From the UHGV virus genome UHGV-1844214: a stretch of 16,776 nucleotides of DNA; one strand, written 5' to 3'. Both the position numbers and the translations under genes were made by a program. The notes below the pieces were generated by a model that did no database searches, was not told the origin of the DNA, and saw only the letters and a program-made list of their open reading frames with translations. Source of the stretch: a virus. This document shows positions 8,510 to 8,620 of the stretch, one piece after another; position 1 is the stretch's first letter; every line of letters starts with the position of its first letter.

Positions 8510-8620
8510 ATGCCCTCCATAGTAACCATGAAACAATAATACGATATGTACTTTTAGAATGCAAACAAAAAATACATCTTGTGCATGGATGGTTTTAGTA
8601 CAGAGCGTAATAATAAGGGT
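8510..8620. promoter_or_regulatory. OR region: divergent pR (for cro) and pRM (for cI) with candidate operator sites
   Basis: Minus-strand -35 TTGCAT (8564..8559) and -10 TATTAT (8541..8536) with 17-bp spacer upstream of cro; candidate operators AATAC-N5-GTACT (8538-8552) and AGTAC-N5-GTAAT (8597-8611), related to the AGTAC-N5-GTACT palindrome at pL. Confidence 0.5.

Follow-up and report, generated by a model that had tools for sequence, protein, structure and literature searches.

Which DNA sites would be recognized by the repressor and by Cro of the prophage carried on UHGV virus genome UHGV-1844214, and how closely would a switch built on these sites follow that of phage lambda? The window considered here is the whole analysed stretch of 16,776 nucleotides from this genome. 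A preliminary description of the locus had proposed that the cro-cI intergenic region (OR) and the pL region (OL) share operator sites with a 15-bp AGTAC-N5-GTACT core, and that these sites are not lambda operators and would define the immunity specificity.

Gene Context of the Control Region

The window contains the early-control region of a lambdoid prophage in an orientation opposite to the standard lambda map. The cro and cI genes (Table 1) are divergent and separated by a gap of 111 bp, as in a lambda-type switch. A lambda-type cII gene is located to the left, and a lambda-type N gene with a nutL boxB is located to the right.

The interval between cI and OL (9281-9358) contains a terminator only; rexA/rexB or other genes are absent from it. 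A TTGC-N6-TTGC sequence (TTGCGTTTGTTTGC), which is the lambda pRE/CII-binding motif, is found on the plus strand at 8152-8165, within the beginning of the lambda-type cII gene, and is directed through cro into cI. Lambda-like sequence begins about 6 nt past the pL -10 (~9441) with CATCAGCAGGACG... and continues into the nutL boxB (window 9435-9510). The presence of CATCAGCAGGACG after pL is common to the window, the Stx1 phage of record AP005153 and Salmonella phage L, and the pL transcription start looks like a conserved mosaic junction.

Table 1. Positions of genes, promoters, candidate operators and other signals of the control region (window coordinates).
Feature	Position	Strand	Sequence or elements	Remarks
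cro	8294..8509	-	recognition helix CTQGAIGHWESG	71 aa, all-helical HTH_3 protein
pR	8536..8564	-	-35 TTGCAT (8564-8559), 17-nt spacer, -10 TATTAT (8541-8536)	drives cro
OR1	8537..8553		TAATACGATATGTACTT; 15-bp core 8538-8552 AATACgatatGTACT	overlaps pR spacer and 5 nt of pR -10
OR2	8570..8586		AAATACATCTTGTGCAT; 15-bp core 8571-8585 AATACatcttGTGCA	left half consensus, right half weak
pRM (proposed)	8586..8614	+	-35 TGGATG (8586-8591), 17-nt spacer, -10 AATAAT (8609-8614)	
OR3	8596..8612		TAGTACAGAGCGTAATA; 15-bp core 8597-8611 AGTACagagcGTAAT	covers pRM spacer and 4 nt of pRM -10
cI repressor	8621..9280	+		219 aa, N-terminal HTH_3 domain and lambda-like C-terminal S24 domain
Stem-loop terminator	9311..9332	called on both strands		between cI end and OL3
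OL3	9359..9375		AAATACAAAGCGTTATA; 15-bp core 9360-9374 AATACaaagcGTTAT	weakest OL site
OL2	9392..9408		TAGAACATTTTGTATTG; 15-bp core 9393-9407 AGAACattttGTATT	overlaps pL -35 by 3 nt
pL	9406..9434	+	-35 TTGACT (9406-9411), 17-nt spacer, -10 TACTAT (9429-9434)	
OL1	9417..9433		AAGTACAAATCGTACTA; 15-bp core 9418-9432 AGTACaaatcGTACT	perfect 5+5 dyad; overlaps pL spacer and 5 nt of -10
nutL boxB	9490-9504		GCCCTGAAGAAGGGC	

Candidate Operators

The full set of candidate operators comprises six 17-bp dyads, three in OR and three in OL. All four sequences listed in the preliminary description are present exactly (8538-8552, 8571-8585, 8597-8611 and 9418-9432) and belong to this set; the list was incomplete, as OL2 and OL3 had been missed. 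The 5-N5-5 core by which the sites had been described as 15-mers is present, but 17-mers provide the best description. The half-site derived from the twelve window half-sites is w-A-R-T-A-C-R with A5 and C6 invariant, and the full-site consensus is w-A-R-T-A-C-R-N3-Y-G-T-A-Y-T-w.

The dyads overlap pR, pRM and pL, which corresponds to a lambda-type tripartite OR/OL arrangement. The two overlaps claimed earlier, that of 8538-8552 with the pR -10 and that of the OL palindrome with pL, are borne out. OR1 on pR and OL1 on pL are placed in an identical register: 6 nt lie between the -35 and the 15-bp core, and 5 nt of the -10 are included in the 17-mer. OR2 is centred at -43 with respect to the proposed pRM start; it is located upstream of the pR -35, from which a gap of 5 bp separates it.

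Promoters and the Start of cI

For pR, a promoter scan agreed on the -10 and placed the -35 1 nt away (an 18-nt spacer alternative). The pR positions are kept in the Stx1 phage as TTGTAT/TATTTT. The proposed pRM was not called in the consensus promoter scan, and its -35 is weak. If the -10 in Table 1 is used, the A of ATG 8621 would be the pRM +1 and the cI mRNA would be leaderless. We take this layout of -10 and ATG to correspond to that of lambda, where pRM produces a leaderless cI message. The same AATAAT + 6 nt + ATG geometry is also found upstream of the repressor gene of phage L, and AP005153 annotates a 'putative maintenance promoter' at the place of pRM, in addition to putative pR and pL.

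Public records are inconsistent on the cI start: the equivalent of 8585 is used in AP005153 and Dewey, and that of 8627 in Nil2. A start at ATG 8585 (231 aa) was rejected, since this ATG falls within OR2 and the pRM -35, and homologues do not conserve the resulting 12-residue extension. Homologues share the N-terminus MK(M)KW(Y/N)ELA, which favours a start at 8621 (leaderless from pRM) or at 8627. AAGGG is present at 8615-8619, 7 nt before ATG 8627, and pRE-derived transcripts might initiate at 8627 instead.

Statistical Support within the Window

The check suggested with the preliminary description, a search of the whole window for AGTAC-N5-GTACT with no more than two mismatches, gave 9 matches versus 3.17 expected, a number reached by 2 of 200 shuffles. 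The more degenerate ARTAC-N5-GTAYT with at most one mismatch occurs six times in the window versus 0.99 expected (0/200 shuffles reach 6), and four of the six matches are in OR or OL. The support for the sites derived from the window only is moderate, and the window by itself would not prove their function. Blind enumeration of 5-N(0-12)-5 dyads in OR and OL only was not significant versus shuffles; A/T homopolymer patterns dominated it, and its best non-homopolymer dyad was A[AGT]TAC-N5 with 4-5 matches, where at least 5 are reached by 40 of 300 shuffles.

The outcome of the blind enumeration could indicate that the dyads do not bind a protein and have arisen by chance or from the composition of AT-rich promoter DNA, with -10-like strings such as GTATTAT, GTACTAT and GTAATAAT; the overlap of three right halves with -10 hexamers points in the same direction. 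However, the left halves, OL2, OL3 and OR2 are not promoter hexamers and yet carry the invariant A-C core. An independent matrix, built from the six sites of phage L only, also argues against a chance origin: across the 16.8 kb of the window, it scored six sites at 8 bits or higher (shuffle mean 1.48), and each of them is in OR or OL.

The operator pattern is also matched at 15232-15255, far from the early promoters, by AGTACCGGTAGTACC and AGTACCTGCTGCATT, which overlap each other. With scores under 7 bits on the 17-bp matrix, both look accidental.

Conservation across Lineages

Comparative evidence provides the decisive support for the putative operators. Five lineages were compared: the window, VT2-Sakai, Salmonella phage L, an Enterobacteriaceae prophage (L015) and an Erwinia phyllosphaerae prophage (L016). 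The last two were obtained from a search of genome contigs for Cro relatives (6 loci in total). Their Cro proteins are 80% (L015) and 77% (L016) identical to the window Cro, and that of phage L/ST64T is 70% identical. Two other loci, assigned to a 'Bacillota bacterium' MAG (L012) and a 'Segatella copri' MAG (L014), encode Cro proteins 100% and 99% identical to that of the window; these are most likely mis-binned E. coli prophage contigs.

The matrix derived from the window gave 7 matches of at least 7 bits on phage L versus 0.92 expected (0/200 shuffles), six of the seven being in OR or OL. On L015 and L016 its matches are located almost only in OR and OL, and the same is observed for Pseudomonas phage psageB2, whose recognition helix is of the same type. 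Each 5.2-kb locus of phage L, L015 and L016 contains three sites between cro and the repressor gene and two or three at the expected OL. A site homologous to OR1 is found in VT2-Sakai, phage L, L015 and L016.

In three-way alignments, invariant columns amount to 50 of 60 in half-sites, 13 of 30 in site centres and 6 of 35 in inter-operator non-promoter DNA. A set of 28 distinct sites from the five lineages contains A5 and C6 in all 56 half-sites, a purine at position 7 in 55/56, A2 in 49/56 and T4 in 45/56, while the site centre carries 0.3-0.4 bits only. Conservation of half-sites and not of centres, in five lineages and in the non-alignable Pseudomonas phage, is another observation against the chance explanation. 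As three right half-sites coincide with -10 hexamers, promoter function may be behind part of their conservation.

Individual features of the sites are retained as well. The right half of OR2 is weak in all five lineages (GTGCA/GTGTG/GTGCG), so the weaker site suggested earlier at 8571-8585 proved to be real. The right half of OR3 is GTAAT in all lineages compared. Spacing is kept across the five lineages, with 32-34 bp for OR1-OR2, 26 bp for OR2-OR3, 25-26 bp for OL1-OL2 and 30-33 bp for OL2-OL3. OR2 and OL2 are separated by 822 bp in the window and by 808 bp in phage L, versus 2230 bp in VT2-Sakai. The proposal that OR and OL share one operator type is supported by this pattern: the putative sites are placed as in lambda, and their half-sites are kept in five lineages while the 3-5 central bases and the inter-operator DNA change.

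Repressor, Cro and Recognition Helices

Pfam assigns residues 11-58 of cI to HTH_3 and residues 87-209 to Peptidase_S24, as expected for an HTH repressor of the self-cleaving type. Residues 84-218 are ~98% identical to the lambda cI C-terminal domain, and the N-terminal domain aligns with that of lambda only weakly (E = 0.0033, 1lli). In its domain composition, cI is chimeric, as is usual for lambdoid phages.

The best solved relative of Cro is PDB 28tn_A, an 82-aa 'lambda repressor-like protein' (~50% identical, E = 2.4e-16); P22 C2 and 434 repressor are more distant structural relatives. Thus, a solved structure exists for a close relative of the window Cro family. Over 62 residues, cI shares 35% identity with Cro, and the two have a nearly identical recognition helix, TQG(G/A)IGHW. 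Since the helices are nearly identical and helix type co-varies with the half-site, repressor and Cro would be expected to bind the same operators.

This covariation is observed across several phages. Relatives with the same helix type (L, L015, L016 and psageB2, TQGGVAHW in the latter) have the core (A/G/T)TAC-N5-GTA, which is also present in epsilon34 and Proteus phage Pm34 with the helix T/S-K-G-A-V-x-H-W. In mEp213 and S137, with the helix (S/N)QSR(I/L)xNYE, the 5-N5-5 frame is kept and the half-sites are A-W-C-A-C (ACAC versus GTAC/ATAC). What changes systematically is half-site position 4 (T versus C), in step with the second helix residue (Gly versus Ser). Lambda has the QSGVG helix and the TATCAC half-site, and its Ser45 contacts the C:G pair at position 4, which makes the covariation between position 4 and the helix mechanistically plausible. 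Correlations between Cro helices and OR half-sites were reportedly described by Hall, Lefevre and Cordes in 2005.

The role in immunity specificity suggested for these sites is consistent with the proteins: cI residues 1-83 form a non-lambda HTH_3 domain, Cro has the same helix, and a different helix is accompanied by a different half-site, so the operators would be expected to define specificity. Covariation of the half-site with the recognition helix is also the last of the observations that leave a chance origin of the dyads largely refuted and extremely improbable.

Alternatively, the motif could be bound by another regulator, a host factor or a phage protein, with cI and Cro using a different motif that has escaped notice. 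In its favour, the searchable literature yielded no footprint, EMSA or reporter study performed with cognate cI or Cro, and the only EMSA found with VT2-Sakai operator oligonucleotides used the non-cognate lambda CI (apparent Kd 3.7-6.4 micromolar, PMC10742460). Such a regulator is hardly credible, since the motif follows the type of cI/Cro helix in phages of Escherichia, Salmonella, Erwinia and Pseudomonas alike, and the blind dyad enumeration in OR and OL yielded no rival repeated motif common to both. The sites also have no resemblance to the LexA box (CTGT-N8-ACAG). The six sites are, very probably, cI/Cro operators of a lambda-like prophage switch.

Proposed Switch Mechanism

Dimers of cI and dimers of Cro could both recognize the six operators through their nearly identical helices. 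Lysogeny would be maintained by cI bound at OR1 and at OL1/OL2, where it would occlude the -10 and -35 elements of pR and pL. From the weak OR2, at -43 of pRM, cI would be placed to activate pRM via an acidic patch on helix 2 (E21/E25). OR3, which lies over the spacer and -10 of pRM, could provide negative autoregulation by cI and the shut-off of cI synthesis by Cro. Dimerization, cooperativity and RecA-stimulated self-cleavage would be supplied by the C-terminal domain identical to that of lambda. The sequences, where they are placed, how they are conserved and the protein homologies are observed directly, whereas we infer by analogy with lambda that the sites are bound, in which order they are filled, that binding is cooperative, that pRM is activated and that the cI message is leaderless. 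Residues E21 and E25 of cI align with E34 and D38 of lambda, which form the lambda positive-control patch; the acidic patch is consistent with pRM activation from OR2.

OR1-OR2 cooperativity and pR repression may not follow the lambda model unchanged, because OR1 and OR2 are about one helical turn farther apart than in lambda and OR2 does not overlap the pR -35. Lambda operators are spaced by 24 and 23 bp. The sites could thus be genuine cI/Cro operators within a switch whose logic is unlike that of lambda, either in the cooperative pairing or in the role of OR2 (pR repression versus pRM activation). The spacing of 32-34/26 bp kept in five lineages, unlike the lambda values, could be cited for such a logic, as could the position of OR2 upstream of the pR -35 instead of across it. 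A precedent is provided by 933W, whose repressor apparently lacks cooperative binding to adjacent sites. We nevertheless consider a switch logic of this kind improbable: the domain responsible for cooperativity in lambda is almost fully preserved in the window cI, the OL1-OL2 spacing of 25 bp is lambda-like, and OR2 at -43 of pRM is close to its place in lambda (-42). The conserved weakness of OR2 is, moreover, the expected look of a cooperatively filled site.

In the preferred, lambda-like switch, one aspect is not trivially lambda-like, namely a cooperativity domain identical to that of lambda together with OR1 and OR2 kept an extra helical turn apart. It is doubtful that the conserved geometry of OR, with its extra turn, exactly 26 bp for OR2-OR3 and a weak right half of OR2 throughout, has a functional consequence, i.e., different pairing or looping with the lambda cooperativity domain, and that VT2-Sakai-type phages and phage L are cross-immune. 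If this were the case, OR2 could, for example, be purely a pRM activator site filled via long-range OL-OR contacts and not via OR1, and the operator code shared by E. coli VT2-Sakai-type phages and Salmonella phage L would make them cross-immune.

Significance of the Immunity Type

The immunity type is common: among 5,426 complete E. coli genomes, 768 contain at least 80% of the 1.18-kb region. The Stx2a prophage Sp5 of O157:H7 Sakai, which is of clinical importance, is under its control. Knowledge of the operators could be applied to predict homoimmune prophages and to design reporter and operator-mutant constructs for studies of Stx-phage induction. Re-finding the sites in another mosaic prophage adds little in itself.

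Comparison with Known Systems

Lambda is similar to the window in its tripartite 17-bp dyad operators on pR/pRM and pL, in the cI C-terminal domain, in OR2 centred at about -43 of pRM and in a seemingly leaderless cI start. Half-site positions A2, A5 and C6 are shared with lambda TATCAC; position 4 is T in the window versus C in lambda. Neither TATCACCGC-type half-sites nor the lambda N-terminal domain, the marks of lambda immunity, are found here. The window sites differ from the lambda 17-bp consensus at 7-10 positions, versus 2-6 for lambda's own six operators, in agreement with the earlier statement that they are not lambda operators. Other differences include Cro, all-helical HTH_3 like 434/P22 Cro in the window versus the alpha/beta fold in lambda, the OR1-OR2 distance (33 bp versus 24 bp) and the absence of rexAB between cI and OL.

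Salmonella phage epsilon34 is similar in its putative operators (WTACRAWWTGTAT, core TAC-N7-GTA) and has the repressor helix VTKGAVSHW. The WTACRAWWTGTAT operator was proposed in the epsilon34 genome paper, according to which the N-terminal domain of the repressor has its nearest relatives in L, VT2-Sa and Nil2, at ~50% identity. In contrast to the window, two sites per operator region are annotated in epsilon34, and its Cro is 43% identical to the window Cro.

The immC region of Salmonella phage L/ST64T is closer, with its related Cro (see above), the repressor helix KTQGAIGHWLNG and the same -10-to-ATG geometry. It differs in a non-lambda-like repressor C-terminal domain and in DNA that is alignable only in patches. 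Operator annotation was not found in the phage L/ST64T immC record.

The closest system is the VT2-Sakai type. Its DNA is 93% identical to the window from cro through most of cI (AP005153 Stx1 phage, Stx2 phage II, Nil2, 2851 and PA-series Sakai-type Stx2a phages), and the window Cro is 98.6% identical to VT2-Sakai-type Cro, as within one immunity group. The operator set described here is already known, since it was predicted earlier for VT2-Sakai-type phages, and the present finding is a rediscovery. GenBank annotation has included the sites since about 2003, and AP005153 contains 'putative operator' features at the same three OR and three OL places as the window. The same six 17-mers are listed for PST1/Sakai-type phages by Yin et al. 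2015 (PMC4587872, Table S5), with credit to Fattah et al. 2000. Labels are swapped in that table, with the pL sites called OR1-OR3 and the cI-cro sites called OL1-OL3 (positions from AP005153 and NC_000902).

All six published VT2-Sakai operators are found in the window with 1-2 substitutions each, as is consistent with membership of the same group. With the exception of position 15 in OL3, the substitutions are confined to positions 1, 7, 8 or 9. In the comparison of the window with the Stx1 phage, the half-sites are retained unaltered, and the differences are in the site centres and the DNA between operators. The nearest phage records are Dewey and vB_EcoP-683R2/720R6 (99.6% identical) and Louie (99.2%), none of which is a Stx phage. 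The flanks distinguish the window from the VT2-Sakai type: its module is adjoined by lambda-type N/nutL and cII, and OL comes directly after cI. On sequence grounds, the module of the window is a VT2-Sakai-type immunity module set in the early-control region of a lambdoid prophage.
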